Of a stretch of DNA of 64,000 nucleotides, positions 36 to 61,686 are shown one piece after another. The stretch's first letter is position 1. Each line of letters starts with the position of its first letter. The notes beneath the pieces were generated by a model that had not been told where the DNA came from, did no database searches, and saw nothing but the letters and a program-made list of their open reading frames with translations. Source of the stretch: an uncultured Ignavibacteria bacterium (GTDB lineage: Bacteria; Zixibacteria; MSB-5A5; WJJR01); NCBI GenBank assembly GCA_964593585.1, contig CAZQIZ010000009.1, positions 306 to 64,305 on the forward strand, read 5' to 3'. Both the position numbers and the translations under genes were made by a program.

Positions 36-3000
36 GTGAAGTGTATCTGTACCAGCGGTCGAACTACCAAGGCGCGATGTCGTGGCCTGCTGGTAGTCTC
101 GACCCTGCTCGTCGCGTTCGCGCTGGTCTCCAACGCGTTCTCCGCTTCAGATCCGGAACCATCCCCGCTCTTCCAGCACAGTCTCAAAACCTCGATCGAA
201 AAATTTGAGGAGCCGAATGCCGCCGCCAAGCCCGCCTACCCGGCGAAGCAGGCCAGGCCGCATCCGGAGCAGGCCCCCAATCCCGGCGCCGCCGGTGCCA
301 AGATGGCGACACTCGACGGTACCTACACCTGCACTGGGACTCCCACATGTGACGGGACGGCCACCTGCACCGGCGAGATGACCTGCAACGGCGCGCCCGA
401 CTGTCTGCCGCCGACCATGCCGGGATTCCCGACCTGCATCGGCACCCAGAGTTGCGAGGGGACGACCACCTGTCCCGGCACCGCCTCGTGCGCCGGCACC
501 GCGTCGTGCGATGGCTCGACCACCTGCTCCGGCCAGCAGACCTGCCCCGGCACCACCACCTGCGAGGGCACGCTGACCTGTCCGGGCTCGACCACCTGCA
601 GTGACCAGCCGACGTGCGGCGACCAGCCGACCTGTCTGCATTTCCCGACCTGCAACATGCAGCCGACCTGCGATGGCAAGCCGACCTGTTACAACACGGC
701 CAGTTGCCATGGCTCGATCACCTGCGATGCCGCCACGCCGACCTGCGATCAATCGCCGACCTGCGGCGGCACCGCCACCTGTACCGCGGGCGCGACCTGC
801 GATGGCACCGCCACCTGCGGCGGCGTCTCCTGCGCGGCTGGCGGAGCGACCTGTCCCGGCTACGTCACCTGCTCCGGGTCGAATACATGCGATCCAACCG
901 GCCCGACCTGCGATGGTTCGCCCTCGTGTGATGCCACCGGCGCCACCTGTGCCGGCCATCCCACCTGTCCGGGCAGCACCACCTGCAGCACCGAGCCATC
1001 CTGCGACGGCACCGCATCGTGCGCGGCCACGGTCGCGACATGCCAGGGCACAGCCAGTTGTCCCGGCTGGGCCACCTGCCAGGGGAGTGTGACCTGCCTG
1101 GGGTCGACCGGCGCCACCTGCGACGGCAACCCGACATGCAAGGGCTACGCGACCTGTAACAACGCGACCACTTGCGTCGGCTATCCGTCTTGTCCGGGCA
1201 CCTACACCTGCGAAGGATATCACACCTGCGCGGGCGCGGCGACTTGCGCCAGCAATCAGACCTGTCCGGGCACGCCAACCTGCGATGGCACCACCACTTG
1301 CGGAGCCGGTCTGCCCACTTGCGGGACTGCGGCCACATGCAGTGGCCAGAACACGTGCAACGCCAGTCTGACTTGTCCGGGCTCCAATACCTGCACCGGC
1401 ACCCAGACTTGCGACGCACAAGCCAGTTGCCCCGGCAGCGCCACCTGCGCCGGACAACAGACCTGCGCCGGCACCGTGACCTGTCAGACCGCGGCGACAT
1501 GCAATGTCACCTGCAACACCACGGCAACATGCACCGGTTACAACACCTGCTCGTGGTCGAACACCTGCCCCGGCACACCGACCTGCTCGGATCTGCAGAC
1601 CTGCGCCAATCAGCCCACCTGTCCGGGCGGAGCGGCCACCTGCCAGGGCACCACGACCTGCCACAACATCACCTGTTCCGATGTGCCGACTTGTCCGGGT
1701 TATCAGACCTGCGAGGGCTCCTACACGTGCGTGGGCTCGCCGACCTGTCCGAATCAAGCGACCTGCACCGGCTTCCAGACCTGCGCCGGCACCCCGACCT
1801 GCGCGCCGCTGCACACGTGCGGCGGAGCGGCCACCTGCGCCGGCACCGCGACCTGTTCGCCCACATTGCTGACCTGCGCCGGCCAGTTCACCTGTGCTGG
1901 CTCGATCACCTGCGCCGATGTGGTGACTTGTCCGGGCACACAGACCTGTCTGGGGTCGATCTCGTGCGGCCATACGATCACCTGCGCAGCGCTGTCGACC
2001 TGCCCCGGTTCGCCGACCTGCAAGGGCGCGACAACCTGTAAGGGCCAGGTGACCTGCAAAGGCGCGGCCACCTGTATCGGCATGCCAAGTTGCCCGCAGT
2101 CGGTCAGTTGCGCGGTGGTGACCTGCTCGCCCAGCCCGACCTGTGGCCAGCATTTCTCCTGCTGGGGACAGGCGACCTGCGCCGGTCAAAACACCTGCGC
2201 CGGCAATCCGTCATGTTTGGGTGCGGTCTCGTGCATCAACGCCAAGACTTGCGCCGGCGTGGCGACCTGCCATGGCGCACTGACCTGCCCGGGCACTCAG
2301 ACCTGCAATGGCACCACCTGTCCGGGTTCGGCGACCTGTCCGGATTCATATTCGTGCAGCGGCTTCAATACCTGCTCCGGCAGTTCCACCTGCCCGGGCA
2401 GCCCAACTTGCTGCACGCCGACATCGCCGGGATGGCCGACCTGTGAAGGCACCACCACCTGCTCCGGCTTCATGCCGACCTGCGGCGCGTGGGGACCGAC
2501 CTGCACCAACTGGCAGACCTGCACCGGCATGCCGACCTGCGGCAAGACACCGACCTGCAGCGCGACCGGCGTGACCTGCACTTCGCAGCCGACCTGCTGC
2601 TGGACCGGCACCTGCCAGGGCTCGCCGACCTGCGTCAATCAACCGACCTGCGACTTCGCCACCTGCGAAGGCAGCGTGACCTGCTTCGGCGCCTACACCT
2701 GTCAGGGCAACGTCACCTGCGAAGGCGGCGCGACTTGTCACTACTCGACCACCTGTGAGGGCTACCACACCTGCCCGAACAGCCCGACCTGCGACCATCA
2801 GGCGACCTGCGCCGGATTCACGACCTGCGTCGGCACCACGACCTGCGATGGGCCGACCTGCAACGGCACGATCTCCTGCGCCGGCACGCCGACCTGTCCC
2901 GGTCAGGCCACCTGCGCGCACACCGCGACCTGCTGGGATACGCACTCCTGCCAGGGCAACGTGACCTGTCCGGGCACAAGCACCTGCCAGGCGGCCACCT

Positions 3001-3335
3001 GCGCCGGCACCGCGACCTGCGGCGGCTACTTCACCTGCGGCCAGGCGGCCTGTGTGGCGACCTGCGTGTGCACCTGCCACGGCGACGCCAACTGCGACGG
3101 CGTCAAGGTGGATGTGCGCGACGTGGTCATTGCCATCAACATCGCCTTCCGCGGTACGCCTTCAACCTGTGATCCAGGTTGCCCGGCCGAACGCACCGAC
3201 GTCAACTGCGATGGCGTGAGCAACGTCGTCGACGTCGTCAAGATGGCCACCGTCGCCTTCCGCGGCGGCGACCCGGCCGTCGAGTTCTGCAACCCGTGCG
3301 ACACCGCGCCGCCAGGCGGCTCGACCTGCAATTAG
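36..3335 (+). CDS. Secreted 1099-aa Cys/Thr heptad-repeat protein (~130 imperfect x-G-x-x-T-C-x repeats) ending in the shared dockerin-like Cys-containing C-terminal module
   Basis: GTG start at 36 preceded by AGGAGGT (24-30). N-terminal signal peptide LLVVSTLLVAFALVSNAFSA. Residues ~95-1005 have Cys spaced every 6-7 residues (TCPGTAS-CAGTAS-CDGSTT-C...), with a matching 21-nt periodicity of ...acctgc... in the DNA. C-terminus CHGDANCDGVKVDVRDVVIAINIAFRG...TDVNCDGVSNVVDVVKMATVAFRGGDPAVEFCNPC has two D-x-N-x-D-G loops each followed by a helix, and is shared with five other proteins in the window. TAG stop followed by a terminator hairpin. Confidence 0.8.
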   Translation: MKCICTSGRTTKARCRGLLVVSTLLVAFALVSNAFSASDPEPSPLFQHSLKTSIEKFEEPNAAAKPAYPAKQARPHPEQAPNPGAAGAKMATLDGTYTCTGTPTCDGTATCTGEMTCNGAPDCLPPTMPGFPTCIGTQSCEGTTTCPGTASCAGTASCDGSTTCSGQQTCPGTTTCEGTLTCPGSTTCSDQPTCGDQPTCLHFPTCNMQPTCDGKPTCYNTASCHGSITCDAATPTCDQSPTCGGTATCTAGATCDGTATCGGVSCAAGGATCPGYVTCSGSNTCDPTGPTCDGSPSCDATGATCAGHPTCPGSTTCSTEPSCDGTASCAATVATCQGTASCPGWATCQGSVTCLGSTGATCDGNPTCKGYATCNNATTCVGYPSCPGTYTCEGYHTCAGAATCASNQTCPGTPTCDGTTTCGAGLPTCGTAATCSGQNTCNASLTCPGSNTCTGTQTCDAQASCPGSATCAGQQTCAGTVTCQTAATCNVTCNTTATCTGYNTCSWSNTCPGTPTCSDLQTCANQPTCPGGAATCQGTTTCHNITCSDVPTCPGYQTCEGSYTCVGSPTCPNQATCTGFQTCAGTPTCAPLHTCGGAATCAGTATCSPTLLTCAGQFTCAGSITCADVVTCPGTQTCLGSISCGHTITCAALSTCPGSPTCKGATTCKGQVTCKGAATCIGMPSCPQSVSCAVVTCSPSPTCGQHFSCWGQATCAGQNTCAGNPSCLGAVSCINAKTCAGVATCHGALTCPGTQTCNGTTCPGSATCPDSYSCSGFNTCSGSSTCPGSPTCCTPTSPGWPTCEGTTTCSGFMPTCGAWGPTCTNWQTCTGMPTCGKTPTCSATGVTCTSQPTCCWTGTCQGSPTCVNQPTCDFATCEGSVTCFGAYTCQGNVTCEGGATCHYSTTCEGYHTCPNSPTCDHQATCAGFTTCVGTTTCDGPTCNGTISCAGTPTCPGQATCAHTATCWDTHSCQGNVTCPGTSTCQAATCAGTATCGGYFTCGQAACVATCVCTCHGDANCDGVKVDVRDVVIAINIAFRGTPSTCDPGCPAERTDVNCDGVSNVVDVVKMATVAFRGGDPAVEFCNPCDTAPPGGSTCN

Positions 3336-3355: not shown

Positions 3356-3396
3356 CCGAGCGGGGAGTCGCACGACTCCCCGCTCGTTTTTTTTTG
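3356..3396 (+). terminator. Rho-independent terminator (GC stem gagcggggagtcg / cgactccccgctc followed by T9)
   Basis: Perfect 13-bp inverted repeat with a 3-nt loop, followed by ttttttttt, immediately downstream of the stop at 3335. Confidence 0.65.
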
Positions 3397-4337: not shown

Positions 4338-4518
4338 TAGTCATTATCATCCGCGACCTCGTATTTGCGCCACGCATCTGTCATTTCAGACCGTTCGCGG
4401 CGCCCCGTGCCGCGAACGGTTTGCTGGCTTTGCCTTTCAGGAGGACAGACATTCTTGTCTGTCCATCGCCGCGTGATGCGGGTCCGTTTTTATGACCCGC
4501 CGAACGAGGCGATACGCA

Positions 4519-4618
4519 CGGCAGGGATGCCCGTCCGCGCCATGCCGTTCCCGATCGCGCGGCAAAAAAGCGCCCCGCAATCGGGAACGGCAGGTCAGAC
4601 AAGAATGTCCGACCTCCT
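4519..4618. repeat. Copy 1 of a ~100-bp structured direct repeat (internal inverted arms gccgttcccgatcgcg / cgcaatcgggaacggc around cggcaaaaaagcgcccc)
   Basis: About 95% identical to 5679-5777. Sits in a hairpin-dense intergenic region (4340-4730) that also contains accgttcgcggc/gccgcgaacggt and ggacagaca-ttct-tgtctgtcc hairpins. Confidence 0.6.
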
Positions 4619-4731
4619 CATCAAGGGCCAATGTCGCCTTCGCTCCGCCATCTCGCCGCCAGCTTGACAAACAGGAGCGGGTGTCATACTCTTTCATTGT
4701 AAGCGGCCCGCCATTTGTCCTCGGAGGAAAC

Positions 4732-5657
4732 ATGTCGTTCTTCAGGACCCTCTTCGCGTCCGCGATTCTCGTCGCCATGGTGGTTCATCCCGCGTTCGCC
4801 GACAATTCCATCGTCGTCGAGTCCCGTACCTTCGCGCCTGGACAGACCGTCTGCACCGTCGGCGTCTTCGTTTCCAATGAGGTCCCGATTGTCGGCATGG
4901 TCTTCCAACTCGAGGCTCGCGCGGTCTCCGGAGGCGCCTACTTCGTCGGCCCGGTAGGTTCATCATTCTTCCAAGTGCGGGCCGGCGCACGCGTGGATGC
5001 GTCTCCGCTGGGTTCGGCCGACCCGTTGGGGCGTTGGCCGGAAGCATTGTGCACACGCCGCCGTTTCGCCACGCCGGCCGCGACCAACAGTTGCAGCGGC
5101 CCGGTGTCGAGCACATGGGCAACCCCGACCGCCTCGGTCGACGGCATCAGCCCGGACCCCGTCGAGTACGCACCGTCAGCGTTGCCGATCCGCAGGCGGA
5201 TGAGGAGTATGCCCTGGCGGCCGGAGCCGATCCCGCCACCCGCGACAGCGCGTCCTTCTTCTTTGTTTTCGATGTGAACACGAACATCGGTTGCTTCGAG
5301 ATCGACTCCTGCTGCACCACGCCGGCCAATCACATCGCCTTCGTCGATGAATTCACCAATGCCATCGTGCCGTCTTTCACCAAGGGCACGATCTGCATTT
5401 CCGGCTGCTTCTGCGAGTGCCATGGCAATCCCGCCGTGGCAAGCAATCCGAACATCGATGTTCTCGATGTCGTTTACACCCTCTACGTCGCCTTTCGAGG
5501 GCAATCGAGTATCCCGGATACCAGCCCCGTGTGCCCGGTGAATGCCACCGACGTGGACTGCAATGGCCACAGCGATGTCATTGATGTCATCAAGATGATT
5601 GACGTGGCCTTCCGCTCCGCCGACCCGGCCTCGGTCTTCTGCGACCCCTGCCCTTGA
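4732..5657 (+). pseudogene. Secreted small protein with the dockerin-like C-terminal module, split by an apparent frameshift (N-terminal part in frame of 4732, C-terminal part in frame of 5034)
   Basis: ATG at 4732 with GGAGGA RBS and signal peptide MSFFRTLFASAILVAMVVHPAFA. The plausible protein sequence continues in a different frame from ~5150 on (TVSVADPQADEEYALAAGADP...CFCECHGNP...DVDCNGHSDVIDVIKMIDVAFRSADPASVFCDPCP) and ends at 5657. The frame-1 ORF degenerates into Arg/Pro-rich sequence before its stop at 5277. The shift is somewhere in 5000-5180. Confidence 0.45.
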
Positions 5658-5777: not shown

Positions 5778-5925
5778 CTATGAGAAACTTCTTTTCAATT
5801 GGGTCGCGGCGTCTTGTGCCGCGACCGGCTTGGAATCTTTGTTCCCCCGACCGCTTGCCAAATCCGCAAAATCCCGTACCTTGCGGAGTGATTTGCTCGT
5901 TTTACTTCACACAGACGGACTGCGA

Positions 5926-8631
5926 ATGACAATCAAACGTGTATTGCTGACCGCCGGCGCGCTGCTCGGCGTGGCCATCGTGTACCTGTCCCTGACCCAG
6001 CGCGAGCGCACTTCGCCCTCGCGCGCCTACTTCACCATGGTGCATGACTTTGTCGCCCAACGCGGCAAGGTTCCCAAGGCCAAGGCCCGTCCCAACGACT
6101 GGTTCTACCTCCAACGCGCCTGGCCGGGAGACGATGTCCCCGTCGAGGCGCGCATGAAGGCGAAGAACAAGGCGCTCGACCTCCAGCGCGCGTCCGCCGC
6201 CAAGGACGCCCAAACCGCGCCGGTCTGGTCCGATGCCGGACCGACCAACATCCCCGGACGGGTCGTCGACCTTGCCATCAATCCCTACAACTCCAGCATC
6301 GTCTTCGCCGCCTCGGCCGCCGGCGGTGTGTTCAAGTCAATCGATGGCGGCAACAATTGGACGCCGATCTTCGATGACCCCGGGCCGCAGCCGATGGGCG
6401 CGATCGCGATCCACCCGATCAACGACAACATCCTCTATGCCGGCACCGGCGAAGCCAACGCCGCCACCGACAACTACGAGGGCACCGGCATCTACAAGAC
6501 CATCGACGGCGGCGCATCCTGGACCCTGGTGGGCCTGCCCAACAGCTACAGCATCGGCCGCATCGTCATCGATCCCCTCCGCCCCGAAACCGTCTATGTC
6601 GCCGTCGCCGGACGCATGTTCGGCACCAATCCCGAACGCGGCCTCTACCGCTCGCAAAACGGCGGCGCCAGTTGGGAGCAATTGCTCTACATCAACGACA
6701 CCACCGGCTGCATCGATGTCGCCTTCCATGCCTCCACCGGCACCATTCTCGCCGGCATGTGGCAGCGCTGGCGCAATCCAATGCAACGGCAGGCGGGGGG
6801 ATGGTCGACCGCGATCTGGCGCTCGACCGACTTCGGCGCAAACTGGACGAAGCTCAATGGCGGTGTGACCCCCGGATTCGGATTGCCGGCGCCGTCGGCG
6901 ATCCTCGGACGCATCGGCCTGGCACTGACGCAAAACTCCGAGACCGTCTACGCGATGTTCGATGAGCATCCCGGCAACTTCGCCGGCATCTACCGCAGCG
7001 ATGACCTCGGCGGTTTCTGGTCGCGTGTCAACGATGCCGCCTTGAGCGGCTTTACCGGCGGATTCGGGTGGTATTTTGGCCAGATCCGCTGCCACCCCGG
7101 CGATCCCGAGGTGGTCTTCGCGCTCGGTGTGCCGCTCTACAAATCCGTCGACGGCGGCGCCTCCTGGAGTGAGATGGCCGGCAACATCCACGTCGATTTC
7201 CACGCGCTCGCTTTCAGCCCCACCAACAGCAACCAGATCTACCTCGGGGGCGACGGCGGCGTGGCCTACAGCGCCGACGGCGGCAACAACTTCACGCCGC
7301 GCGCCAACATGGGCAATTCGCAGTTCTATGCCATGACCATCGACAAACTCAATCCCGAACGTCTCTACGGCGGCACGCAGGACAACGGCACCCTGCGCAC
7401 GCTCACCGGCGCGCTCAACGATTGGGATCACATCCTCGGCGGAGATGGTTTCTACACCGTGGTCGATTTCACCAATTCCAACGTCATCTACGCCGAATTC
7501 CAGAACGGCTACCTGCTGAAATCCCCCGACCTCGGCGCGAATTTCTACTACGCCATGAACGGCATCGACTATAACAATGACCGACACAACTGGTCGACGC
7601 CCTTTGAGATGGCGCCCTACAACAACAATGTTCTCTACTACGGTTCCCATCGGCTGTATAAGACCAGCGATGGCGCCGCCAATTGGGCGCCGATCTCCGG
7701 CGATCTGACCGATGGCGATGATCCCGGCAACCTCGCCTTCGGCACCATCACCACCATTGGCGTGTCGCCCAACACGCCGGGCGTCGTCTACGTTGGCACT
7801 GACGACGCCAATATCTGGGTGACGCAGAATGACGGCGGCAACTGGACGAATATCACAGCCGGACTGCCCAACCGCTGGGTCACGCGCCTGACCGTCCACC
7901 CGACCAATCCCGCCATCGCCTATGTGACCCTCTCCGGTTACAAACTCGCCGACCATGAGGCGCACATTTACCGGACCAGCAACTATGGCGCGGCCTGGAC
8001 ACCGATCGCCGGCAACCTCTTCGATGCGCCGATCAACGATGTTGTCATCGATCCCGACTATCCCGATTCAGCGCTCTACATCGGCACCGACTATGGCGTC
8101 TACATGACTCATGACGGCGGCCAGAACTGGATCCCGCTCGATCAGGGGATGCCGCTTTTGACCCCCGTCCACGACATCGATTTCCATCAGGGCACGCGCA
8201 AGCTCGTCGCCGGCACCCATGGCCGCTCGATGTTCAAGACCACCGTTGCCTGCCCCGACGTAGTCGATGCCGACGGCGACAATGTCATGGATTTCTGCGA
8301 CAATTGCCCGGCCGCGAGCAATCCCGGTCAGGAGGATGCGGACGCCGATGGCATCGGCGACGCCTGCGAGGCCTGCGCCTGCGCCTGCCATGCCGATCCG
8401 CTCTGCGATGGCATCCGCAACAACGTGCAGGATGTCGTGCTCAGTGTCAGTGTCGCGTTCCGCGGCGCGGCCATCGCTCCCGATCCCAGCCCGACCTGTC
8501 CGCGCGAACCCACCGACGTGAACTGCGACGGCGTCACCGGGGTGGTCGATGTCGTCAAGATCGTCAATGTGGCGTTCCGTGGGGCCAACCCGCTCACGGA
8601 ATACTGCAACCCGTGCCCGCCGACTTCCTGA
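5926..8631 (+). CDS. Secreted BNR/Asp-box repeat beta-propeller protein (sortilin/Ycf48/GH74-like) with thrombospondin-type-3-like Ca-binding repeats and the shared dockerin-like C-terminal module
   Basis: At least 9 S-x-D-x-G-x-x-W Asp-boxes (SIDGGNNWT, TIDGGASWT, SQNGGASWE, STDFGANWT, SVDGGASWS, SADGGNNFT, TSDGAANWA, QNDGGNWT, TSNYGAAWT). DADGDNVMDFCDNCPAASNPGQEDADADGIGDACE repeats. C-terminus CACACHADPLCDG...TDVNCDGVTGVVDVVKIVNVAFRGANPLTEYCNPCP. Start set at ATG 5926 (MTIKRVLLTAGALLGVAIVYLSL signal/anchor); an upstream in-frame ATG at 5830 is possible. Confidence 0.75.
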   Translation: MTIKRVLLTAGALLGVAIVYLSLTQRERTSPSRAYFTMVHDFVAQRGKVPKAKARPNDWFYLQRAWPGDDVPVEARMKAKNKALDLQRASAAKDAQTAPVWSDAGPTNIPGRVVDLAINPYNSSIVFAASAAGGVFKSIDGGNNWTPIFDDPGPQPMGAIAIHPINDNILYAGTGEANAATDNYEGTGIYKTIDGGASWTLVGLPNSYSIGRIVIDPLRPETVYVAVAGRMFGTNPERGLYRSQNGGASWEQLLYINDTTGCIDVAFHASTGTILAGMWQRWRNPMQRQAGGWSTAIWRSTDFGANWTKLNGGVTPGFGLPAPSAILGRIGLALTQNSETVYAMFDEHPGNFAGIYRSDDLGGFWSRVNDAALSGFTGGFGWYFGQIRCHPGDPEVVFALGVPLYKSVDGGASWSEMAGNIHVDFHALAFSPTNSNQIYLGGDGGVAYSADGGNNFTPRANMGNSQFYAMTIDKLNPERLYGGTQDNGTLRTLTGALNDWDHILGGDGFYTVVDFTNSNVIYAEFQNGYLLKSPDLGANFYYAMNGIDYNNDRHNWSTPFEMAPYNNNVLYYGSHRLYKTSDGAANWAPISGDLTDGDDPGNLAFGTITTIGVSPNTPGVVYVGTDDANIWVTQNDGGNWTNITAGLPNRWVTRLTVHPTNPAIAYVTLSGYKLADHEAHIYRTSNYGAAWTPIAGNLFDAPINDVVIDPDYPDSALYIGTDYGVYMTHDGGQNWIPLDQGMPLLTPVHDIDFHQGTRKLVAGTHGRSMFKTTVACPDVVDADGDNVMDFCDNCPAASNPGQEDADADGIGDACEACACACHADPLCDGIRNNVQDVVLSVSVAFRGAAIAPDPSPTCPREPTDVNCDGVTGVVDVVKIVNVAFRGANPLTEYCNPCPPTS

Positions 8632-12115: not shown

Positions 12116-13699
12116 ATGCACAACGTGTGCCGATTCTCATCGCTGACCGCGGCGGTCGCTTTATCACTCCTGGCCATTGGCCCGGCCACGGCGGGCGCGC
12201 AAGGAATCACCAGCTTCACCGCATCCCCGTGCGTGCTCAGCGTGCAATGGCAGGCCGACGGCGATGCGGCGGGCGACTTCTTCGGCTTCTCTGTCGACGG
12301 TAACGCCGATTTCAACGGCGATGGCAAACCCGACATTCTGGTCGGCGCGATGCTGGGCGACATCGTGTATGGCTACTACATCAGTCCCATGGGTGTCTTC
12401 GAGCGCGGGGTCTGGTGGAACGGCGTCAGCGGATCGGATTTCGGCCGCTCGGTTCGCTTCCTCGGCGTGCCGGACAATGACCTGCACGGCACCGCTTCGG
12501 CTCTCATCGGCGCCCCGGGACACTCGGGCGCCGGGTTCGACAGTTGCGGCTTTGTCCACGAGCGCGGGCGCAGTAACCTCTTCGGCTGGATCGGGGAAGC
12601 GACGGGGGAGAAGCTGGGCTATTCGGTCGGCAACGTCGGCGATCTCGACGGTGATGGCTTCGATGAGATCATCGCCGGCGCTCCTGAGGCCGCGGGTGCG
12701 CTCGGTCCCCGCGCCGGCTACGTGCTCCTGCTGTCGCAGAATCCCGGCAGCGGCTACCTGATCCGTCGATATGATCGCGGCGTGCCGAATGAATTGTTCG
12801 GACGCGCCGTGGCCGGCGCCGGGGATGTCGACGCCGATGGTGTCAACGATGTCCTCATCGGCGCGCCGTACACATCCCGGATCGGTCCCGTGCTGCTGCC
12901 CGTCGGCGCCGCGTATGTCTATCGCACCGACGGCACCGTCATCTGGACGTTTTACGGCGAAACCGCGGGTGACTACTTCGGCAACAGCGTCGCCACCGCC
13001 GGCGACGTCAACGCCGACGGCCATCCCGACATCCTCGTCGGCGCCTGGCTCGCCGACGTCAACAGCATGCATGATGCCGGTGCCGCCTACGTCTATTCCG
13101 GCGCCGACGGTTCATTGCTCTACAGATTCGTGGGCGAGGGGCCGTCGCACTGCTTCGGCTACTCGGTGCGCGGTCTCGGCGACATCGATGCCGACGGCTA
13201 TGATGACTTCATCATCGGCGCCCACCGCGCCGATCTCAACGGCACCACCGACGGCGGCGCAGTCTATGTCTACTCCGGCCGATTGGGCAATTACCTCTGG
13301 ATCATTACCGGTCTGCACTCTGACGACATCTTCGGCGTCTCCGCCGCGGCCGCCGGCGACATGACCCTCGATGGCCACCCCGATTTCATCGTCGGCGCCT
13401 TCGGCACCGACCCCGACGGCCGCGTCGACGCCGGCTCCGCCTTTCTCTTCGGCTGCGCATGCGATTGCGCCTACAACGGCGACCCCGCCCATGACGGCAT
13501 CACCGATGTCCGCGATGTCGTGATCACCGTCGGCGTCGCCTTCCGCGGCACGGCCTCCGAGCAGGGCGTCAGTTGCCGCTACCAGGATCCGGACGTCAAC
13601 TGCTCCGGTGCCTGCGACGTCGTCGATGTCGTCAAGATGGTCAACGTCGCCTTCCGCGGCGGCAACCCGGCCACGGAATTCTGCGATCCCTGCCCGTAG
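12116..13699 (+). CDS. Secreted FG-GAP (integrin-alpha-type) beta-propeller repeat protein with the shared dockerin-like C-terminal module
   Basis: ATG 12116 after GGGAGGT. Signal peptide AAVALSLLAIGPATAGAQG. Repeated FGxSVxxAGDVNGDGxxDLxVGA motifs (GDFFGFSVDGNADFNGDGKPDILVGA, FGRAVAGAGDVDADGVNDVLIGAP, FGNSVATAGDVNADGHPDILVGA, FGYSVRGLGDIDADGYDDFIIGA, FGVSAAAAGDMTLDGHPDFIVGA). C-terminus CACDCAYNGDPAHDGITDVRDVVITVGVAFRG...DVNCSGACDVVDVVKMVNVAFRGGNPATEFCDPCP. Confidence 0.8.
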   Translation: MHNVCRFSSLTAAVALSLLAIGPATAGAQGITSFTASPCVLSVQWQADGDAAGDFFGFSVDGNADFNGDGKPDILVGAMLGDIVYGYYISPMGVFERGVWWNGVSGSDFGRSVRFLGVPDNDLHGTASALIGAPGHSGAGFDSCGFVHERGRSNLFGWIGEATGEKLGYSVGNVGDLDGDGFDEIIAGAPEAAGALGPRAGYVLLLSQNPGSGYLIRRYDRGVPNELFGRAVAGAGDVDADGVNDVLIGAPYTSRIGPVLLPVGAAYVYRTDGTVIWTFYGETAGDYFGNSVATAGDVNADGHPDILVGAWLADVNSMHDAGAAYVYSGADGSLLYRFVGEGPSHCFGYSVRGLGDIDADGYDDFIIGAHRADLNGTTDGGAVYVYSGRLGNYLWIITGLHSDDIFGVSAAAAGDMTLDGHPDFIVGAFGTDPDGRVDAGSAFLFGCACDCAYNGDPAHDGITDVRDVVITVGVAFRGTASEQGVSCRYQDPDVNCSGACDVVDVVKMVNVAFRGGNPATEFCDPCP

Positions 13700-13992: not shown

Positions 13993-16365
13993 ATGAGACA
14001 CATCCTGCAGTGGGCCTTTGCCCTCACCGTGCTTGGGTCCACCTTGACGCTGGCGGCCGTCCCCACCACGCTCAATGACTTCTTACTCCCGGGCTCACAG
14101 CCGACCCAATCCGGCCAACTCGAAACACCGGACAAATGCGACAACTGCCACGGCGGCTATGATCCCGCCGTCGAGATGGCGTTCAATTGGCGCGGCAGCA
14201 TGATGGCCCAGGCCGCCCGCGACCCTCTCTACTTCGCCTGCCTGGCCATCGCCAACCAGGATGCGCCGGAAAGCGGCGATCTGTGCATCCGCTGCCACTC
14301 ACCGGCCGGCTGGCTGGAGGGCCGCTCGATCCCCACCGACGGTTCGGCGCTCAACCTCAATGACCGCCAGGGCGTCCAGTGCGACTTCTGCCACAAGTTC
14401 GTCAAGCCGACTCCGATTGGAACCAACCCGTATCCCGCTGACGCGTCTTACACTGCTGGCACCTACCCGCGTGATCAGATCTATCTGGGGAACATCGACC
14501 CAATCCCCACGCACTCGGCCAACGGCATGTATGTGGTGGACAGCGACAATTCCAAGCGCGGACCCTACACCGACCCAAACGCGAAACACCAGTTCTTCTA
14601 TTCGCCGTTTCATCGCGCTGCCGCCCTCTGTGGCACCTGCCATGATGTGTCCAACCCCGTCTACATGAAGGTGGCCGATCGCGACTACGTGCCTAACACC
14701 TTCGACCAGCCATCCCCCAGCTTCGATCCCTACACCATGTTTCCGATCGAGCGCACCTTCAGCGAATGGCTGATGAGTGATTACAACACCCCGGCCGGTG
14801 TCTACGCGCCGCAGTTCGGCGGCAACAAGCCCCACGTATCCACCTGCCAGGACTGCCACATGAAGGATGTCACCGGCGTCGGCTGCAACAAGGCCGGCAC
14901 CCCGACCCGTACCGACCTGCCGTTCCATGACATGACCGGCGGCAACACCTTCATGCCCGACATCGTCGCGGCGGTCTTTCCGGCCGAGGTCAATACAGCG
15001 GCGCTGGATGCCGGCGAGGCGCGCGCGCGCGGCATGCTGCAGAAAGCCGCTTCCATGGCGCTCTCTGCCACTTCTGGCGCTGGAATCCATGACCTGCGGG
15101 TCCGCATCACCAACGAAACCGGCCACAAGTTGCCGTCGGGCTATCCCGAAGGGCGACGCATCTGGATCAACGTGCGCGCCTTCGACATCACCGGGCTGCT
15201 GGTCTATGAATCCGGCGCCTACGATCCGGCCAGCGCGGTACTGTCTCATGACGCGCACGCCAAGATCTACGAGATCCATCCCGGCATTTCGTACAGCGCC
15301 AGTCCCATTCTCGGTCTGCCGCCGGGCAAGTCCTTCCACTTCGTCGTCAACGACACAATCTGGTCCGACAACCGCATCCCGCCGCGCGGTTTCACCAACG
15401 CCGACTTCGAGATGATCCAGTCGCCGGTGGTTGGATATGCCTATCCCGACGGTCAGTACTGGGACGACACGCACTACCCGGTTCCCGGGATTGCGCGCAC
15501 AATTATCGCCACGCTGTATTACCAGACCACATCGAAAGAGTACGTTGAGTTTCTCCGCGACGAGAATCGCTCGAACGACTGGGGCGACTCGCTCTACAAC
15601 CTATGGGCCGCGCACGGGAAATCCGCGCCGGTTTTGATGGTCTCCGACACTCTGCTGGTTGTGCCCACTGCCGGCGACACCGATGGCGACGGCATCCCCG
15701 ATGTGACCGATAACTGCCCGACGGTGCCCAACCCCGCACAACTCAACGCCGATGGCGACGCCTATGGCGCGGCGTGCGACTGCGACGACGCCAGCGCGCA
15801 GGTCTATCCCGGCGCGTCCGAGCTGTGCAACGGGATCGATGACAATTGCGACGGCCTTATCGACAGCAACGCGGTCAATGCGCCGACTTGGTATGCCGAC
15901 GCCGACAACGACACCTGCGGCAACCTGGCGATCACGAAGCTTCAATGCACTCAGCCGACCGGCTATGTCGCCAACAGCTCCGACTGCAATGATGGCAACG
16001 CGCAGGTCCATCCCGGCGCCCCCGAACTGTGCAACGGCATCGATGACAACTGCAACGATGTGACCGACGAAAGCTGCGAGTGCGTGTGCGCCTGCCACGC
16101 CGATCCCGTCTGCGACACGATCATCGTCAATGTTCTTGATGTCGTCAGCGTGGTCAACGAGGCCTTCCGCGGGGCAGTGGCGATCACCGACCCGACGCCA
16201 TGCGCCTACAGCCCGTCCGATGTCGATTGCAGCGGCCTGATTAGCGTGCTCGATGTCGTGCGTATTGTAAACGTCGCCTTCCGTGGGAACAACCCCGCCA
16301 CGGAGTTCTGTTCACCGTGCCCGCCGGCGACCGAGACCCGCGCCGGGTCGGGCTTAACGGACTAA
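13993..16365 (+). CDS. Secreted multiheme c-type cytochrome (5 CxxCH) fused to Cys-rich metal-binding-type repeats and the shared dockerin-like C-terminal module
   Basis: Signal peptide MRHILQWAFALTVLGSTLTLAA. Heme motifs CDNCHG, CIRCHS, CDFCHK, CGTCHD, CQDCHM. Later DTDGDGIPDVTDNCPTVPNPAQLNADGD and two C-D-C-D-D-x-x-A-x-V-x-P-G-A-x-E-L-C-N-G-I-D-D-N-C repeats (MopE-like putative metal-binding motif). C-terminus CECVCACHADPVCD...SDVDCSGLISVLDVVRIVNVAFRGNNPATEFCSPCP. Confidence 0.8.
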   Translation: MRHILQWAFALTVLGSTLTLAAVPTTLNDFLLPGSQPTQSGQLETPDKCDNCHGGYDPAVEMAFNWRGSMMAQAARDPLYFACLAIANQDAPESGDLCIRCHSPAGWLEGRSIPTDGSALNLNDRQGVQCDFCHKFVKPTPIGTNPYPADASYTAGTYPRDQIYLGNIDPIPTHSANGMYVVDSDNSKRGPYTDPNAKHQFFYSPFHRAAALCGTCHDVSNPVYMKVADRDYVPNTFDQPSPSFDPYTMFPIERTFSEWLMSDYNTPAGVYAPQFGGNKPHVSTCQDCHMKDVTGVGCNKAGTPTRTDLPFHDMTGGNTFMPDIVAAVFPAEVNTAALDAGEARARGMLQKAASMALSATSGAGIHDLRVRITNETGHKLPSGYPEGRRIWINVRAFDITGLLVYESGAYDPASAVLSHDAHAKIYEIHPGISYSASPILGLPPGKSFHFVVNDTIWSDNRIPPRGFTNADFEMIQSPVVGYAYPDGQYWDDTHYPVPGIARTIIATLYYQTTSKEYVEFLRDENRSNDWGDSLYNLWAAHGKSAPVLMVSDTLLVVPTAGDTDGDGIPDVTDNCPTVPNPAQLNADGDAYGAACDCDDASAQVYPGASELCNGIDDNCDGLIDSNAVNAPTWYADADNDTCGNLAITKLQCTQPTGYVANSSDCNDGNAQVHPGAPELCNGIDDNCNDVTDESCECVCACHADPVCDTIIVNVLDVVSVVNEAFRGAVAITDPTPCAYSPSDVDCSGLISVLDVVRIVNVAFRGNNPATEFCSPCPPATETRAGSGLTD

Positions 16366-16384: not shown

Positions 16385-17920
16385 ATGCGACACCATTTCC
16401 GATTGATTGTTCCCGTTCTGGGGCTGTTCCTAGGATTTGCAGCGCCGACAGCCTTTAGCGATACCCTGCCGATCGAATTATTCCGCGGCGCCGATGGTCA
16501 GATCGATGTCGCGGCGGTCCGCGACTCAAGTCTGAATCATGCGATCGACCTGACGGCGCTTTCCATCAGTGATCCACCGGCTGCCTCGAGGCTGGCGCCC
16601 TGCGCCTGGAGCGCCACGCCGACCGGCGTCAGCAATTGGGTCTACGCGCTGGCCACCCACAACAACGATCTCTATGCCGGAGGATTATTCACCACGGCCG
16701 GTGGCGCGACCGTCAATCGCATCGCGCGCTGGGACGGCGTCGCCTGGAATCCACTGGGCGGCGGCATGAACAGCGGCGTGCTCGCGTTGGCTTCCTTCGG
16801 CGACCTGCTGATCGCCGGCGGATCGTTCGCCGTTGTCGATGGCGACTCGATTCCGCGCATCGCGGCATGGGATGGCAGCGACTGGATTCCGCTGGGCTCC
16901 GGCATGAATGACCGTGTGTATGCGCTGACCGTCTACAACGGCCGGCTGATTGTCGGGGGGGACTTTACGCTCGCCGGCGGTGTCGCCGCCAGCCATGTCG
17001 CCGCGTGGGATGGGGTCGCGTGGAGTCCGCTCGCGGCCGGAATCAACGGCCGCGTCTACGCCTTTACCGCCTACGAGGGCCGTCTTATTGCCACCGGCGA
17101 GTTCAGCGAGGCCGGCGGTGCGCCCGCATCGAGCATCGCCGCCTGGGATGGCGTCTCATGGTCCGCCCTCGGCGATGGCATCCATCGCGTGGGCTATGCG
17201 CTGGCCGTCTACGGGTCCGAGCTCATTGTGGGCGGACAATTCACCGCCTCCGGCAATCAGCCCGGCCCCAATCTCGCGTCCTGGGATGGCACGACCTGGT
17301 CCACACTCGGCGGCGGTGTTGCCACCGCGGTCAACGCCCTCCTGGTCGACTCCGGTTCACTCTATGTGGGCGGCTGGTTTACCAGCGCCGGCGGCGCCCC
17401 GGCCCTGCGGGTTGCGCGCTGGGATGGCGCCGCCTGGAATGCCCTCGGCGGCGGGATGGGAAGCCCGGTCAATGCGCTTTCGCTCTATCAGGGCAATCTC
17501 ATTGCCGGCGGGATGTTCACGACCGCCGATGGTCTTTCCGTTGGATACATCGCGGGATGGAGCATGGATCGCGACGGCGACGGCGTCTGCGCCGGCGACA
17601 ACTGTCCCGACGTCTTCAACCCCGATCAGGCCGACAGCGACGGCAACGGCGTCGGCGATGCTTGCGAATCGTGTGCCTGCGACTGCCATGCCAATCCCGT
17701 CTGCGATCTGCCCGAGCCCGATGCGCGCTCGGTGATCGCGATCATGAACGTGGCCTTCCGCGCCTACCCCGACATCATCGATCCGTCGCCCACCTGTCCA
17801 TTTACCACGACCGATGTGGATTGCGATGGCGTCACCACGATTCTCGATGTTCAGCGCATGATCAACGTCGTCTTCCGCGCCGGCGATCCGGCGACGGAGT
17901 TCTGCCTTCCCTGCGACTGA
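16385..17920 (+). CDS. Secreted seven-bladed beta-propeller repeat protein (46-47-aa A-x-W-D-G-x-x-W-x-x-L-G-x-G repeats) with TSP3-like linker and the shared dockerin-like C-terminal module
   Basis: Signal peptide. Seven tandem repeats (RIARWDGVAWNPLGGGMN..., RIAAWDGSDWIPLGSGMN..., HVAAWDGVAWSPLAAGIN..., and so on). Then DRDGDGVCAGDNCPDVFNPDQADSDGNGVGDACE and CACDCHANPVCD...TDVDCDGVTTILDVQRMINVVFRAGDPATEFCLPCD. Confidence 0.75.
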   Translation: MRHHFRLIVPVLGLFLGFAAPTAFSDTLPIELFRGADGQIDVAAVRDSSLNHAIDLTALSISDPPAASRLAPCAWSATPTGVSNWVYALATHNNDLYAGGLFTTAGGATVNRIARWDGVAWNPLGGGMNSGVLALASFGDLLIAGGSFAVVDGDSIPRIAAWDGSDWIPLGSGMNDRVYALTVYNGRLIVGGDFTLAGGVAASHVAAWDGVAWSPLAAGINGRVYAFTAYEGRLIATGEFSEAGGAPASSIAAWDGVSWSALGDGIHRVGYALAVYGSELIVGGQFTASGNQPGPNLASWDGTTWSTLGGGVATAVNALLVDSGSLYVGGWFTSAGGAPALRVARWDGAAWNALGGGMGSPVNALSLYQGNLIAGGMFTTADGLSVGYIAGWSMDRDGDGVCAGDNCPDVFNPDQADSDGNGVGDACESCACDCHANPVCDLPEPDARSVIAIMNVAFRAYPDIIDPSPTCPFTTTDVDCDGVTTILDVQRMINVVFRAGDPATEFCLPCD

Positions 17921-19241: not shown

Positions 19242-20915
19242 ATGCGCACAATCCTCGCCCTTCTGGCCGCGACGCTGGTCGCCGCGTCCGTCCGCGCCGA
19301 GGTCCCGACCGGAATCACCATCCAGGGCCGACTCACCGACGCCGCCGGCGTGCCGCTTCCCGCCGGCAACAAGGACTTCACGTTCAAAATCTTCGATGCC
19401 GCCGTCGGGGGCACCGAAGTCTGGCCCGGCGGGGCAGGGGAGGATCAGGTCATCGCCAGCGACGCCGACGGACTCTGGTCGGCCACCCTCGGCGCAATTC
19501 TTCCGGTTACCGGCGAGGCCTTCCAGGATTCGGCGCGCTGGCTGCAGATCACCGTGGAGGGCACCACGCTGCCGCGCGTGCGCCTCCAATCGACTCCCTA
19601 TGCCATCCGTCTCGAATCCATCGACCGCGCCTACGGCGGCACGATCCAAAGCCCGGTGGCCATCGGCCCCGGTCACACCAACAGCGGTCCCATGGGCTTC
19701 GTCGCCGGCGCAGACAATGCCGTGACCGCCGAGGCCGGCTCCATCTCCGGCGGCCGCTACAACGAAGCCACCGGAGTCGGCGCCACCGTCGGCGGCGGTG
19801 TCTTCAATCGCGCGCGCGGCGACTATTCTGTCATCGCCGGCGGCGGTGCCGATGGCATCGACTCGAATCTTGCCGCAGGCAATTGGTCGACCATTTCCGG
19901 CGGATTCCGGAACACAACTCGGGCCCCGTATGCCACCGTCGGCGGCGGCATCGGACACACCGTGGATAATCTGGCCTCCTATGGTGTCATCGCCGGTGGC
20001 GGCTTCAGCACGGCCGAGGGATTCTTTTCCGCCATCGGCGGCGGATGGGCCAATCGGGCCGCTGGACCGTACTCCACCGTGACCGGCGGCTCCTTCAACC
20101 GCGCCTACGGCTACGGCGCGGTCGTCCATGGCGGCTCGGGATCTCCCGCCGATTCGAACGTGGCCCGCGGCAATTTCTCCATGGTCCTCGGCGGAACGCG
20201 AAACCTCGCCAATGGCAACTGGTCGCTGGCCGCCGGCCATCGCGCCCGCGCACAACACACTGCCTCCTTCGTCTGGGCTGACAGCACCAGCGCCGATTTC
20301 TTCTCCACCGGCCCCAGTCAGTTCCTCATCCGCGCCCGCGGCGGCGTCGGCATCGGCACCAACCAGCCGCAGACCGCCACCGGCGGACAGGTCCTGCACA
20401 TCCTCAACCCCGTCGGCCCCTCCGTGCTGCGTCTCGATGACGGAGAATTCAATGGCATCCAGTGGGAGATCCAGTCCACCGTCTACGGGGGCATCGGCAC
20501 GCTCAACTTCAGTAACATTACCGCCTTTACCAATCCGTTCCAGTTCTATGCCACCGGCGACTTCCATGCCTCCGGCAACATCTGCGCCGCCAACCACGCC
20601 TGCCCCTCCGATGCGCGTCTCAAGGAGGACGTCCGGCCCATCGCCGGCGCCCTCGAACGCGTCCGGCAGTTGCGCGGTATCGAATACCGCTGGACGGAAG
20701 CGGCGCAACGCGACCGCCATCTGCCCGCCGACCGGCAGATCGGCCTCCTCGCCCAAGATGTCCGCGCCATCGCCCCGCAGGCCGTGATCGAGCAATCCGA
20801 TGGCACGCTCGCTGTTGACTACGCGCGACTCGTGCCCCTCTTGATCGAAGCAGTGAAAACTCGACAGCAGCAAATCGAATCACTGAATACCCGGTTGGAG
20901 CAACTCATTCCGTAG
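19242..20915 (+). CDS. Fibre-like surface protein paralog A: signal peptide, conserved N-terminal domain, Gly/Asn/Ala 14-residue repeats, C-terminal Peptidase-S74-like intramolecular chaperone domain
   Basis: ATG with AAGGAGA RBS. N-terminus EVPTGITIQGRLTDAAGVPLPAGNKDFTFKIFDAAVGG...WLQITVEGTTLPRVRLQSTPYA is homologous to the N-termini of the six downstream genes. C-terminus CPSDARLKEDVRPI...QIGLLAQDVRAIAPQAV...LAVDYARLVPLLIEAVK matches the SDxRLKxNI / IAQEV / LIEAIKEL pattern of phage tail-spike and endosialidase chaperone domains. Confidence 0.8.
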   Translation: MRTILALLAATLVAASVRAEVPTGITIQGRLTDAAGVPLPAGNKDFTFKIFDAAVGGTEVWPGGAGEDQVIASDADGLWSATLGAILPVTGEAFQDSARWLQITVEGTTLPRVRLQSTPYAIRLESIDRAYGGTIQSPVAIGPGHTNSGPMGFVAGADNAVTAEAGSISGGRYNEATGVGATVGGGVFNRARGDYSVIAGGGADGIDSNLAAGNWSTISGGFRNTTRAPYATVGGGIGHTVDNLASYGVIAGGGFSTAEGFFSAIGGGWANRAAGPYSTVTGGSFNRAYGYGAVVHGGSGSPADSNVARGNFSMVLGGTRNLANGNWSLAAGHRARAQHTASFVWADSTSADFFSTGPSQFLIRARGGVGIGTNQPQTATGGQVLHILNPVGPSVLRLDDGEFNGIQWEIQSTVYGGIGTLNFSNITAFTNPFQFYATGDFHASGNICAANHACPSDARLKEDVRPIAGALERVRQLRGIEYRWTEAAQRDRHLPADRQIGLLAQDVRAIAPQAVIEQSDGTLAVDYARLVPLLIEAVKTRQQQIESLNTRLEQLIP

Positions 20916-20926
20916 GAGGCCTTGTC

Positions 20927-23494: not shown

Positions 23495-23583
23495 CGTCAG
23501 CGCGCCGACAATACCGAACGCGGTGTTTGTCCCAGTTGGACACCGATTCACCTCTCATCGCTGGAGCTTTGGTGGAGGACCTC

Positions 23584-25623: not shown

Positions 25624-25756
25624 TCACGGCCATCTCGCCTGAACCAACCGTGACCTTCTGCCAGCTCTTGCCCGCGCTCGGAAGCGAAGTGTGCCGTGCG
25701 CCCGCCGACTTTCCCCGGCGAATGAGGTTGAATTTCCTCCCTCTTTTGGCCGAGCT

Positions 25757-25770
25757 GGACTATATTAATC
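25757..25770 (+). promoter_or_regulatory. Conserved GGACTATATTA motif (-10-like TATATT) 66 nt upstream of the paralog D start
   Basis: The same CAGACTATATTAC motif lies 70 nt upstream of the paralog E start (28711-28725). AT-rich hexamer in an otherwise GC-rich intergenic region. Confidence 0.25.
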
Positions 25771-25835
25771 CCGATTTCCGTCTCGGACGGACGCAGTCTG
25801 CCCGTTTACCGCTGTCTGCCAATTTGGAGGACCTT

Positions 25836-28586: not shown

Positions 28587-28600
28587 AAATCTGACACGGC

Positions 28601-28651
28601 CGATCCGCTTTCGCCCACTTTCCTGACCACAGGAGCGGCGAAAGCGGATCG
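28601..28651 (+). terminator. 15-bp inverted repeat (cgatccgctttcgcc ... ggcgaaagcggatcg) immediately after the paralog D stop; possible terminator or regulatory stem-loop
   Basis: Perfect 15-bp arms separated by a 21-nt loop. No T-tract, so function as an intrinsic terminator is uncertain. Confidence 0.3.
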
Positions 28652-28710
28652 CGCCAGTCCGGTTTGAACCCCGGAATCGGGCCGAAATCCCTCTCCTACT
28701 TCTTTCAGAT

Positions 28711-28725
28711 CAGACTATATTACTC
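28711..28725 (+). promoter_or_regulatory. Conserved CAGACTATATTAC motif (-10-like) 70 nt upstream of the paralog E start
   Basis: Matches the motif upstream of paralog D. Confidence 0.25.
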
Positions 28726-28794
28726 GCAAATCCCGTCACCGCGACGGCCGCTGTCTTACCTGTTGTTAAAACTGATCGTACCAGGAGGTCGCCA

Positions 28795-31302: not shown

Positions 31303-31313
31303 GGAGCGCTCTT

Positions 31314-61534: not shown

Positions 61535-61600
61535 TTTACCTCTCCCTCAGGGAGAGGTCGTCCCTGCCGTAGGCAGGGGCGGGTGAGGGGACCGGGCGCA
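61535..61600. repeat. Family-2 palindromic repeat (cctctccctcagggagagg + tcgtccctgccgtaggcaggggcgggtgagggg)
   Basis: Near-identical to 51796-51850 in the first hairpin. The second hairpin is a variant (ccctgcc/ggcaggg). Confidence 0.5.
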
Positions 61601-61686
61601 TGACCAGATTCCAGTCATCCCCGTGCATTCAATACGACAGCCAAGCGAGCGATCCCCACAACACCATCATCCCTCCAAGGACTCAC

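Follow-up and report, generated by a model that had tools for sequence, protein, structure and literature searches.

A secreted bacterial protein with a long array of cysteine-terminated hexads and a predicted cysteine-rich dockerin

Background

Cellulosome-type proteins bear dockerins, C-terminal modules of about 70-80 amino acids (aa) in which a Ca loop followed by a helix occurs twice. A second point of comparison is the beetle antifreeze proteins (AFPs). TmAFP (PDB 1EZG/1L1I) and the Dendroides DAFPs fold into a right-handed β-helix whose coils have 12 residues each and are crossed by a disulfide. The repeats of beetle AFPs are 12 or 13 residues long (TCTxSxxCxxAx), place a Cys at least at every sixth residue and give the proteins a Cys content of 15-19% (PMC4046741). 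This report concerns a gene at positions 36-3335 of a 64,000-nucleotide stretch of DNA (the window) from an uncultured bacterium of the Zixibacteria lineage (GenBank assembly GCA_964593585.1, contig CAZQIZ010000009.1). It encodes a secreted protein that consists largely of 153 short units, each ending in Cys, and that ends in a Cys-rich module predicted to be a dockerin. The reading that we favour, and hold as a little short of an even chance, is a disulfide-stabilised rod or stalk that is docked to the cell surface through the dockerin.

The gene and its product

The open reading frame (ORF) lies on the + strand and encodes 1099 aa, as a preliminary description of this DNA had it. It starts with GTG. 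It is a genuine protein-coding gene. A Shine-Dalgarno sequence, AGGAGG (24-29, +), is present 6 nt 5' of the GTG at 36, as read in the longer upstream assembly sequence. Farther upstream, a longer Logan assembly has the terminator of the preceding gene and an AT-rich stretch. An intrinsic terminator (3357-3396, +), with a 13-bp stem of which 10 pairs are G-C and a following T-run, begins 22 nt past the stop codon. The identical 3300-nt gene with its flanks is found in two independent Logan assemblies, SRR12686701 and SRR12687342.

Base usage also bears on coding. The third-position bases of the repeat (A 5%, C 56%, G 26%, T 12%) are nearly equal to those of an unrelated neighbouring gene (5830-8631), and third-position GC is ~82% in the sense frame and in the neighbouring gene as against ~47% in a 680-aa antisense ORF (147-2189, -). 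That ORF, which had been suspected of being a shadow of the repeat, is indeed one by this third-position check. Its codons coincide exactly with the sense codons, and it stays open because the sense frame contains, over the full length of the gene, only four codons (TCA) that give a stop in antisense. Within the 18-nt unit the information is concentrated at codon positions 1 and 2 of Gly, Thr and Cys while the wobble bases vary. Cys is encoded by TGC (93) and TGT (32) in the repeat, Thr by ACC, ACT, ACA and ACG, and Ser at the fifth position of the unit by TCN as well as AGT codons. This synonymous and Ser-for-Thr variation, together with the position-specific conservation, indicates selection on the amino acid and not on the DNA.

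The encoded protein is secreted, judging from a predicted Sec-type signal peptide at aa 1-36 (36-143, +). It has a basic n-region and a hydrophobic segment, LLVVSTLLVAFALV, followed by A-F-S and the cleavage site. The signal peptide was called by reading the translation and the layout of the homologues, without a predictor, and the cleavage site was placed in the same way. The homologues have the same N-terminal layout, their conserved motif beginning a few residues past an AxA-like site. The ribosome binding site, signal peptide, terminator and codon-position-specific conservation together uphold, on sequence evidence, the earlier view that a translated and secreted protein is made from this frame.

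The hexad array

The array occupies aa 96-1010 (321-3065, +). At ~915 residues, close to the ~910 first estimated, it makes up 83% of the protein. Splitting it after each Cys gives 153 units, of which 125 are six residues long, 11 seven and nine five, within a range of 4-11. The consensus of the 125 exact hexads is [P/A]-G-[T/S]-[P/A]-[T/S]-C. Position 1 is variable (P, A, D or S, also T, E and G; Thr 7%), with L, I and V in the minority. Position 2 is Gly in 70% and G, N or D in 82%. Position 3 is T, S, Q or A, with T, S or A in 59% and Gln, Tyr or Phe in ~22%, and position 4 is P or A. Position 5 is almost always a hydroxyl residue (Thr 84%, Ser 15%; 124/125 in all) and position 6 is Cys in 100%. 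The whole protein contains 216 T, 165 C, 133 G, 113 A, 89 P and 79 S, so that its Cys content is 15%, and the array is nearly devoid of hydrophobic residues. The mature protein would have 162 cysteines; the array accounts for 152 of them and the dockerin for 10, and the total is even.

The preliminary description had given the repeat as about 130 heptads of the form x-G-x-x-T-C-x, with some 150 cysteines and a 21-nt period. These figures need correction. Of the 164 Cys-to-Cys spacings in the protein, 126 are exactly 6 and 11 are 7; short spacings are rare, 1 or 2 in 5/164 and 1-3 in 6/164. The DNA self-identity peaks at lags 18, 36 and 54 (0.47-0.49, over a background of ~0.30), and lag 21 gives no signal (0.31). 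Tandem Repeats Finder likewise reports periods of 18 or 36 only. The motif is thus x-G-x-x-[T/S]-C, with a period of 6 aa or 18 nt, and the very strings first quoted as examples (CAGTAS, CDGSTT) are hexads. The view that the repeats are diverged and do not form a recent slippage array was right. Tandem Repeats Finder detects only short local arrays of 64-94%, and multi-unit DNA copies are 60-76% identical, a low identity which indicates that the array is old.

The array has internal punctuation. At aa 124-134 (405-437, +) it carries the sequence LPPTMPGFPTC, a module-start cap, since nearly all modules of the homologues open with (P)TMPxxPTC or a close variant. A second, degenerate cap that resembles this consensus, TPTSPGWPTC (aa 794-803; 2415-2444, +), occurs just after a CC doublet and suggests that the array consists of at least two modules. 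An 18-residue super-period is not clear: the between-unit similarity at lags 3 and 4 has z = 1.9 before correction and is not significant after correction for multiple tests.

The C-terminal dockerin

The docking module that had been proposed for the C-terminus is found at aa 1010-1088 (3063-3299, +), with the pattern CxCxCHGDxNCDG..AFRG ... DVNCDG..AFRG ... CxPC. It is, by predicted fold and transitive homology, a dockerin. The module alone scores 13.6 bits against Pfam Dockerin_1 (PF00404), below the cut-off of 22.9, and only 3/40 related modules match Dockerin_1 at E < 0.01. The link is made through profiles. A profile of the 40 module sequences matched only two chains in the PDB, both Ruminococcus dockerins (E = 0.027 and 0.54). 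The same profile aligns with the C-terminus of the family member P0012 over 77 columns (hhalign 97.4%, E = 1e-11), and this C-terminus itself scores 45 bits on Dockerin_1, above threshold.

The predicted structure leads in the same direction. From a 17-row alignment, AlphaFold2 models residues ~1008-1088 as two loop-helix segments, with a pLDDT of 85-97 when averaged over blocks of 10 residues. It puts a helix behind each of the two predicted Ca2+ loops, GDANCDGVKVDVRD and DVNCDGVSNVVD; these helices span model residues 150-162 and 187-199 (block pLDDT 89-97). A Foldseek search of the PDB with this model returned dockerins in 6/6 matches, with target-normalised TM scores of 0.33-0.72. The four single-module dockerins among them have TM 0.66-0.72 and rmsd 2.2-2.9 Å, and the best, 2VN6_B, has TM 0.72, rmsd 2.2 Å over 64 columns and a probability of 0.95. 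The small size of the domain keeps the Foldseek significance low (E = 0.3-2.5). Past the module, the C-terminal tail DTAPPGGSTCN with the stop codon (3300-3335, +) follows in the translation, and block-mean pLDDT drops to 62 and then 52.

The module is widespread. A HMMER search of 1.84 billion representatives (E <= 0.001) gave 970 matches, nearly all through the C-terminal module and only about ten through the repeat. In the first 18 kb of the window, at least five genes besides the present one end in this module; the six modules lie at 3063-3299, 5400-5654, 8380-8628, 13440-13696, 16090-16320 and 17660-17917. All six share the motif CxCxCH.DP.CDG..AFRG..DVNCDG..AFRG..CxPC, and the dockerin carries 8-10 conserved cysteines. 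In the other dockerin genes the domains joined to the module include BNR/sortilin, FG-GAP, a β-propeller and a MopE-like motif. The dockerin genes look like a genome-wide surface-display system. The dockerin protein encoded at 13993-16365 (+) also has a thrombospondin type 3 repeat.

A conserved domain of 188 aa (..VESKTV..LPLE.R.V..GAY...CSGP.S...FEIDTCC..P.NHL.F...P.FTKG.I) often directly precedes the Cys-rich dockerins. It was found in P0014 (963 aa), P0018, P0081, P0010, P0011 and the window gene 4477-5657. In P0014, which has it three times, and in P0018 it alternates with dockerins in a scaffoldin-like manner, and the domain is a candidate cohesin analogue. The window gene 4477-5657 (+) looks frameshifted, with two ORFs in different frames. 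The ORF at 4492-5277 has a signal peptide and positions 4-143 of the 188-aa-domain profile, and the ORF at 5034-5657 has positions 107-188 and the dockerin. The gene could be a pseudogene, the frameshift an assembly error, or the shift programmed.

The N-terminal motif and the protein family

Shortly after the predicted cleavage site, a motif conserved in the family alignment, DPEPSPLFQHSLKTSIEKF, is present at aa 39-57 (150-206, +). Among 13 large family members P10, P12, S13, P14, L15, L20 and S23 of the motif alignment are invariant, and in the large relatives the motif takes the form DPxPSPL[F/Y]xxSLxxS[I/V]. It is followed by a Pro/Ala/Lys-rich low-complexity linker at aa 58-95 (207-320, +), for which the sole match to the translation is a weak compositional one to Trypan_PARP.

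When the full protein was searched against 5.8 billion clusters, 13 relatives came up, with local identities of 33-48%. Source names are attached to three of the 13, two Zixibacteria metagenome-assembled genomes (MAGs) and one labelled Acidobacteriota. All 13 have a common layout: signal peptide, N-terminal motif, one or more hexad modules, other domains and a C-terminal anchor. Their hexad modules have 9-50 units each, usually open with the (P)TMPxxPTC cap and sit between globular domains in the manner of a linker or stalk. The anchor is the Cys-rich module or, in P0004 and P0008, a C-terminal domain of the type IX secretion system (T9SS) kind.

A search with the hexad-module profile added 18 proteins of 132-273 aa. 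Most of these have a related N-terminal motif (SPAFxALLxEAIxRLEG or SPAYRASLDLAL), the same x-G-x-x-T-C consensus and different C-termini. Taken over all subfamilies, x-G-x-x-[T/S]-C is always present. The motif SP[LAMV][FY] occurs at aa 31-53 in 34/37 hexad proteins, small families of unrelated appearance among them. Two of the three exceptions have no complete N-terminus and the third, P0163, has the variant APVY. By their sequences, then, 34 of the 37 proteins examined combine the hexads with the N-terminal motif, and the ~40 proteins detected form an undescribed SPLF-motif/Cys-hexad family which, where its members are named, comes mostly from Zixibacteria MAGs. The hexad module, its cap and the companion N-terminal motif are all undescribed.

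The window protein has all four marks of the family, that is a signal peptide, the SP[LAMV][FY]xxxLxx[SA][IVL] motif, hexad modules and a surface anchor. It is the largest member detected, with 126 C-x5-C spacings against 57 in the next-ranked relative. Another unusual feature is that the repeat alone fills the stretch from the N-terminal motif and linker to the anchor.

No Pfam or NCBIfam family covers the repeat when the full protein is scanned against both. The only Pfam model that repeatedly touches the hexads, in the window protein and four relatives, is DUF7640 (PF24646), at 12-20 bits (E = 8e-4 to 0.26) and short of its gathering threshold of 28.1; this family is itself uncharacterised. 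A literature search found nothing relevant on the repeat, on Cys-rich repeats or dockerins of Zixibacteria, on the runs SRR12686701 and SRR12687342, on DUF7640 or on bacterial TmAFP-like proteins.

Several of the small proteins stand out. P0165-P0176 (185-224 aa) and P0148, P0160, P0162 and P0163 (217-223 aa) are small secreted proteins with the N-terminal motif and hexads. One group of these ends in a conserved TTWGxxKxxF and the other in a hydrophobic, Arg-containing tail (..LGSLAGSRRFLGLA) that resembles a sortase/exosortase-type anchor. P0137, a fragment of 116 aa, is 79% identical to window residues 47-102; it looks frameshifted before this region, and the match stops a few residues into the repeat. 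It suggests a close homologue in another sample, and also that the repeat gives trouble to gene callers or assemblers.

A proposed disulfide-stabilised rod and its alternatives

After removal of the signal peptide, the mature protein would consist of the amphipathic N-terminal motif, the hexad array of ~915 residues and a Cys-rich, type-I-like dockerin. We infer that the cysteines are disulfide-bonded, that the repeat is a solenoid and that the protein works as a stalk. The array would fold into a long thin rod held by disulfides, a β-solenoid like that of the beetle AFPs, its core bridged by pairs of successive cysteines at a spacing of six residues. There would be ~76 disulfides or coils and, assuming a rise of 4.5 Å per 12-residue coil, a rod of ~34 nm. 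The dockerin would tether this rod to a scaffold on the cell surface. The protein may then be a rigid stalk or fibre that holds the N-terminal motif away from the cell, or it may contribute to a surface layer. The use of the hexad module as a spacer between domains in the relatives fits a structural role. A rigid spacer for the docking module, one of the functions first suggested, is the best architectural fit among them. AlphaFold2 supports no fold for the repeat.

The structural analogue comes from searches of the PDB. With the single sequence, the top phmmer match was 1EZG, the β-helical antifreeze protein of Tenebrio molitor (E = 1.1). With the repeat profile, 1EZG was the sole match below E = 0.01 among 177,635 PDB sequences (E = 1e-4), aligned on the Cys positions. 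An hhalign comparison of the repeat profile with the TmAFP sequence was degenerate, with one column aligned. The best available structural model for the repeat is a pseudo-symmetric variant of the disulfide-cored solenoid of the beetle AFP type. This leaves the disulfide-laddered, insect-AFP-like solenoid of the preliminary description with the only analogue that was returned, and without AlphaFold2 support or support for an antifreeze function.

A number of results weigh against the rod. First, structure prediction of repeat units, which had been proposed as a check, gave no confident fold in either of two AlphaFold2 runs. The first run (aa 124-292, 14 rows) had a mean pLDDT of 35.7 and no structure; in the second (aa 878-1099) the hexads had block means of 32-43 and only the dockerin folded. 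Across both runs the 10-residue block means of the hexads were ~28-47, with almost no secondary structure. Second, a 12-residue super-period is absent, the between-unit similarity at lag 2 being not above that of shuffled arrays (z = 0.01, 1000 shuffles). Third, the profile match to 1EZG carries a composition bias of 49 on a score of 25 bits and may reflect only a shared Cys period. Fourth, the bulky Q, Y or F at ~22% of third positions fits ill into a core as tight as that of TmAFP. Fifth, when the cysteines that follow the motif are counted in 34 family members, 17 have an even number and 17 an odd one, which gives no sign of full intrachain pairing. Finally, among the window ORFs scanned there is no Pfam cohesin and no Dsb-type oxidoreductase, and the profile of the 188-aa domain has no PDB sequence match and no Pfam hit. 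The low-confidence model of the repeat neither supports nor excludes a β-helix fold.

The strongest competitor, though an unlikely one beside the rod, is a flexible, mucin-like Thr/Pro/Gly/Ala linker, possibly glycosylated, whose interchain disulfides cross-link a matrix, sheath or coat. Keratin-associated proteins and the Cys-rich proteins of spore coats offer a comparison. Such a polymer would be unstructured, as both AlphaFold2 runs make the repeat, and its composition would have almost no hydrophobic residues, as here. The odd Cys count in half of the family members fits intermolecular pairing, the hexad modules of the relatives stand at linker positions between domains, and the array tolerates units of 4-11 residues. 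What argues the other way is the regularity of the unit. The conserved Gly at position 2, the hydroxyl residue at position 5 (124/125) and the 82% of exact hexads speak for a defined local conformation and not for a spacer in which only Cys matters, and a start cap that is conserved, as (P)TMPxxPTC is here, is a usual mark of folded repeat arrays. AlphaFold2, moreover, often does poorly when disulfide-rich repeats come with a shallow alignment, which makes its failure weak evidence for an unstructured polymer.

A bolder reading is somewhat less probable again. The protein would in this case be a new type of fibre, either a rod of ~34 nm and ~76 coils held solely by an unbroken ladder of cystines or a display of thiols at regular intervals on the surface. 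The N-terminal motif, in this rather improbable proposal, would mediate head-to-tail or partner assembly, and the fibre would be displayed in an uncultivated phylum through the hitherto unrecognised Cys-rich dockerin system. If true, it would embody a new structural or biomaterial principle, possibly metal-binding or redox-active, beyond that of a mere linker.

An improbable alternative, ranking below these, is that the cysteines remain reduced as a surface thiol array in a low-oxygen habitat, where they could serve to capture metals or metalloids (Fe, Cu, Zn, As, Hg), to start the formation of metal sulfides or to buffer or conduct redox equivalents. The 153 thiols are regularly spaced, and a scan of window ORFs brought up no Dsb system. 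The neighbour at 13993-16365 bears the same dockerin together with two repeats of a Pfam putative metal-binding motif (Cu-binding_MopE). Zixibacteria are mostly organisms of sediments or the subsurface, which also counts for a thiol array. Yet the C-x5-C spacing is unlike that of known thiolate metal sites (CxC, CxxC, CC), spacings of 1 or 2 being confined to 5/164, and the dense CxC/CxxC/CC pattern of metallothioneins is not seen, spacing 6 being dominant and spacings 1-3 limited to 6/164. There is no pattern of histidine or acidic co-ligands, and metal binding leaves the conserved Gly and Thr unexplained. The window encodes an O2-dependent fatty-acid desaturase, an indication that the cell meets oxygen, and the 8-10 conserved cysteines of the dockerin are most simply structural disulfides.

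That the protein is an ice-binding or antifreeze protein homologous to beetle TmAFP/DAFP is very doubtful. It would account for 1EZG as the best and sole significant PDB match and for the Thr-flanked Cys at every sixth residue (PMC4046741). The TCT ladder is missing, however, with 9 TCT against 152 [T/S]-C dipeptides, the hexads have no 12-residue alternation, and Pfam insect-AFP gives no match even at E <= 10 with the full protein or with pieces of the repeat. The protein also exceeds every beetle AFP more than tenfold in length, and it has a dockerin. It does not belong to the antifreeze family, and it is unlikely to bind ice; convergence and composition may account for the similarity.

Post-translational modification of the Thr-Cys repeats, to lanthionine-type thioethers or thiazoline heterocycles with the N-terminal motif acting as a leader, has still less to recommend it. 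The motif always accompanies Thr-Cys repeats, even in proteins of 185-270 aa, and the Thr-Cys dipeptide is nearly invariant. Against this stand the Sec signal peptides and surface anchors of these proteins and the size of known cores of ribosomally synthesised and post-translationally modified peptides (RiPPs), which are tens of residues and not 915. In five genomic contexts, moreover, there was no LanB/C/M, YcaO, radical SAM or other conserved neighbour, and no Dsb protein was found in them either.

A non-coding 18-nt tandem repeat or an assembly artefact, for which the periodicity itself is the sole argument, can be dismissed with near certainty in view of the codon-position-specific conservation, the match of third-position GC to the neighbouring gene, the ribosome binding site, signal peptide and terminator, the two identical independent assemblies, and homologues that share the domain architecture at only 33-48% identity.

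Other genes in the window

Six consecutive genes on the + strand (19242-33587) each end in Pfam Peptidase_S74 (E = 8e-9 to 2e-17). They lie at 19242-20915, 20927-23494, 23527-25623, 25650-28586, 28795-31302 and 31314-33587. Peptidase_S74 is the intramolecular chaperone of endosialidases and tail fibres, and the array consists of tandem paralogues, on a bacterial contig, that are fibre-like and probably trimeric. One of these genes also weakly touches 'Grass antifreeze beta roll'. The gene at 61600-62790 (+) has a borderline match to Pfam Phage_capsid_4 (28.3 bits against a cut-off of 27) and could encode an encapsulin-like shell protein or be a prophage remnant.

Comparison with known systems

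The LpxA-type left-handed β-helix, with the hexapeptide [LIV]-G-x-x-[STAV]-x, has the same period of six and agrees with the window repeat in the Gly of position 2 and the small hydroxyl residue of position 5. The window repeat differs in its first position, which has P, A, D, S or T in place of the defining aliphatic residue. In such a helix the Cys would face outward, and the 18-residue super-period that goes with it is not clear in the window protein (lag 3, z = 1.9, uncorrected). The hexapeptide helix (PF00132) was rejected as a candidate fold on the non-aliphatic position 1 and the lack of a Pfam Hexapep hit to the protein.

The likeness to the beetle AFPs goes further. Both have Cys at every sixth residue, usually with Thr before it, and almost no hydrophobic core residues, and the ~15% Cys of the window protein is within their range of 15-19% (PMC4046741). 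G, N or D at position 2 is found in 82% of the window units and in 7/11 TmAFP hexads, and a small residue is common at position 3 (T, S or A in 59% of the window units; S or A in the TmAFP core). In contrast to the beetle proteins, the window repeat shows no 12-residue A/B alternation, its 9 TCT motifs among 152 [T/S]-C dipeptides make no ice-binding ladder, and it has 153 hexads against ~10-14. The protein is, besides, bacterial, predicted to be Sec-secreted and dockerin-anchored. If the solenoid is true, no disulfide-laddered solenoid known would come near it in length, since it has ~76 potential cystines against ~8 in the beetle proteins. The architecture would have arisen in bacteria for a purpose other than ice binding, which bears on the evolution of repeat proteins and on the design of thin rigid rods.

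Whatever the fold, three elements are new for genomes of the Zixibacteria type: the hexad module with its PTMPxxPTC cap, the SPLF motif and the Cys-rich dockerin, a variant borne by nearly a thousand protein clusters. The dockerin can be compared with those of cellulosome-type proteins and with dockerin/cohesin-like modules outside cellulosomes. It is C-terminal and of the same size, with two duplicated segments of Ca loop and helix, and the pattern D-x-N-x-D-G-x-x-x-x-x-D describes its second loop, DVNCDGVSNVVD. Superposed on single-module dockerins of C. cellulolyticum, R. flavefaciens and C. thermocellum, the predicted fold reaches TM ~0.7, and many different secreted proteins of one genome bear the module. 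The window module differs in its CxCxC prefix, the Cys inside each Ca loop and the CxPC suffix. Unlike those of cellulosomes, the cargo proteins are not carbohydrate-active enzymes, and in the sister proteins P0004 and P0008 the module is swapped for a T9SS-type C-terminal domain. Anchoring by the predicted dockerin is thus a known principle in a new Cys-rich variant, and the three elements together point to an uncharacterised surface-display system in an uncultivated phylum, cellulosome-like in its design but not for the breakdown of cellulose.

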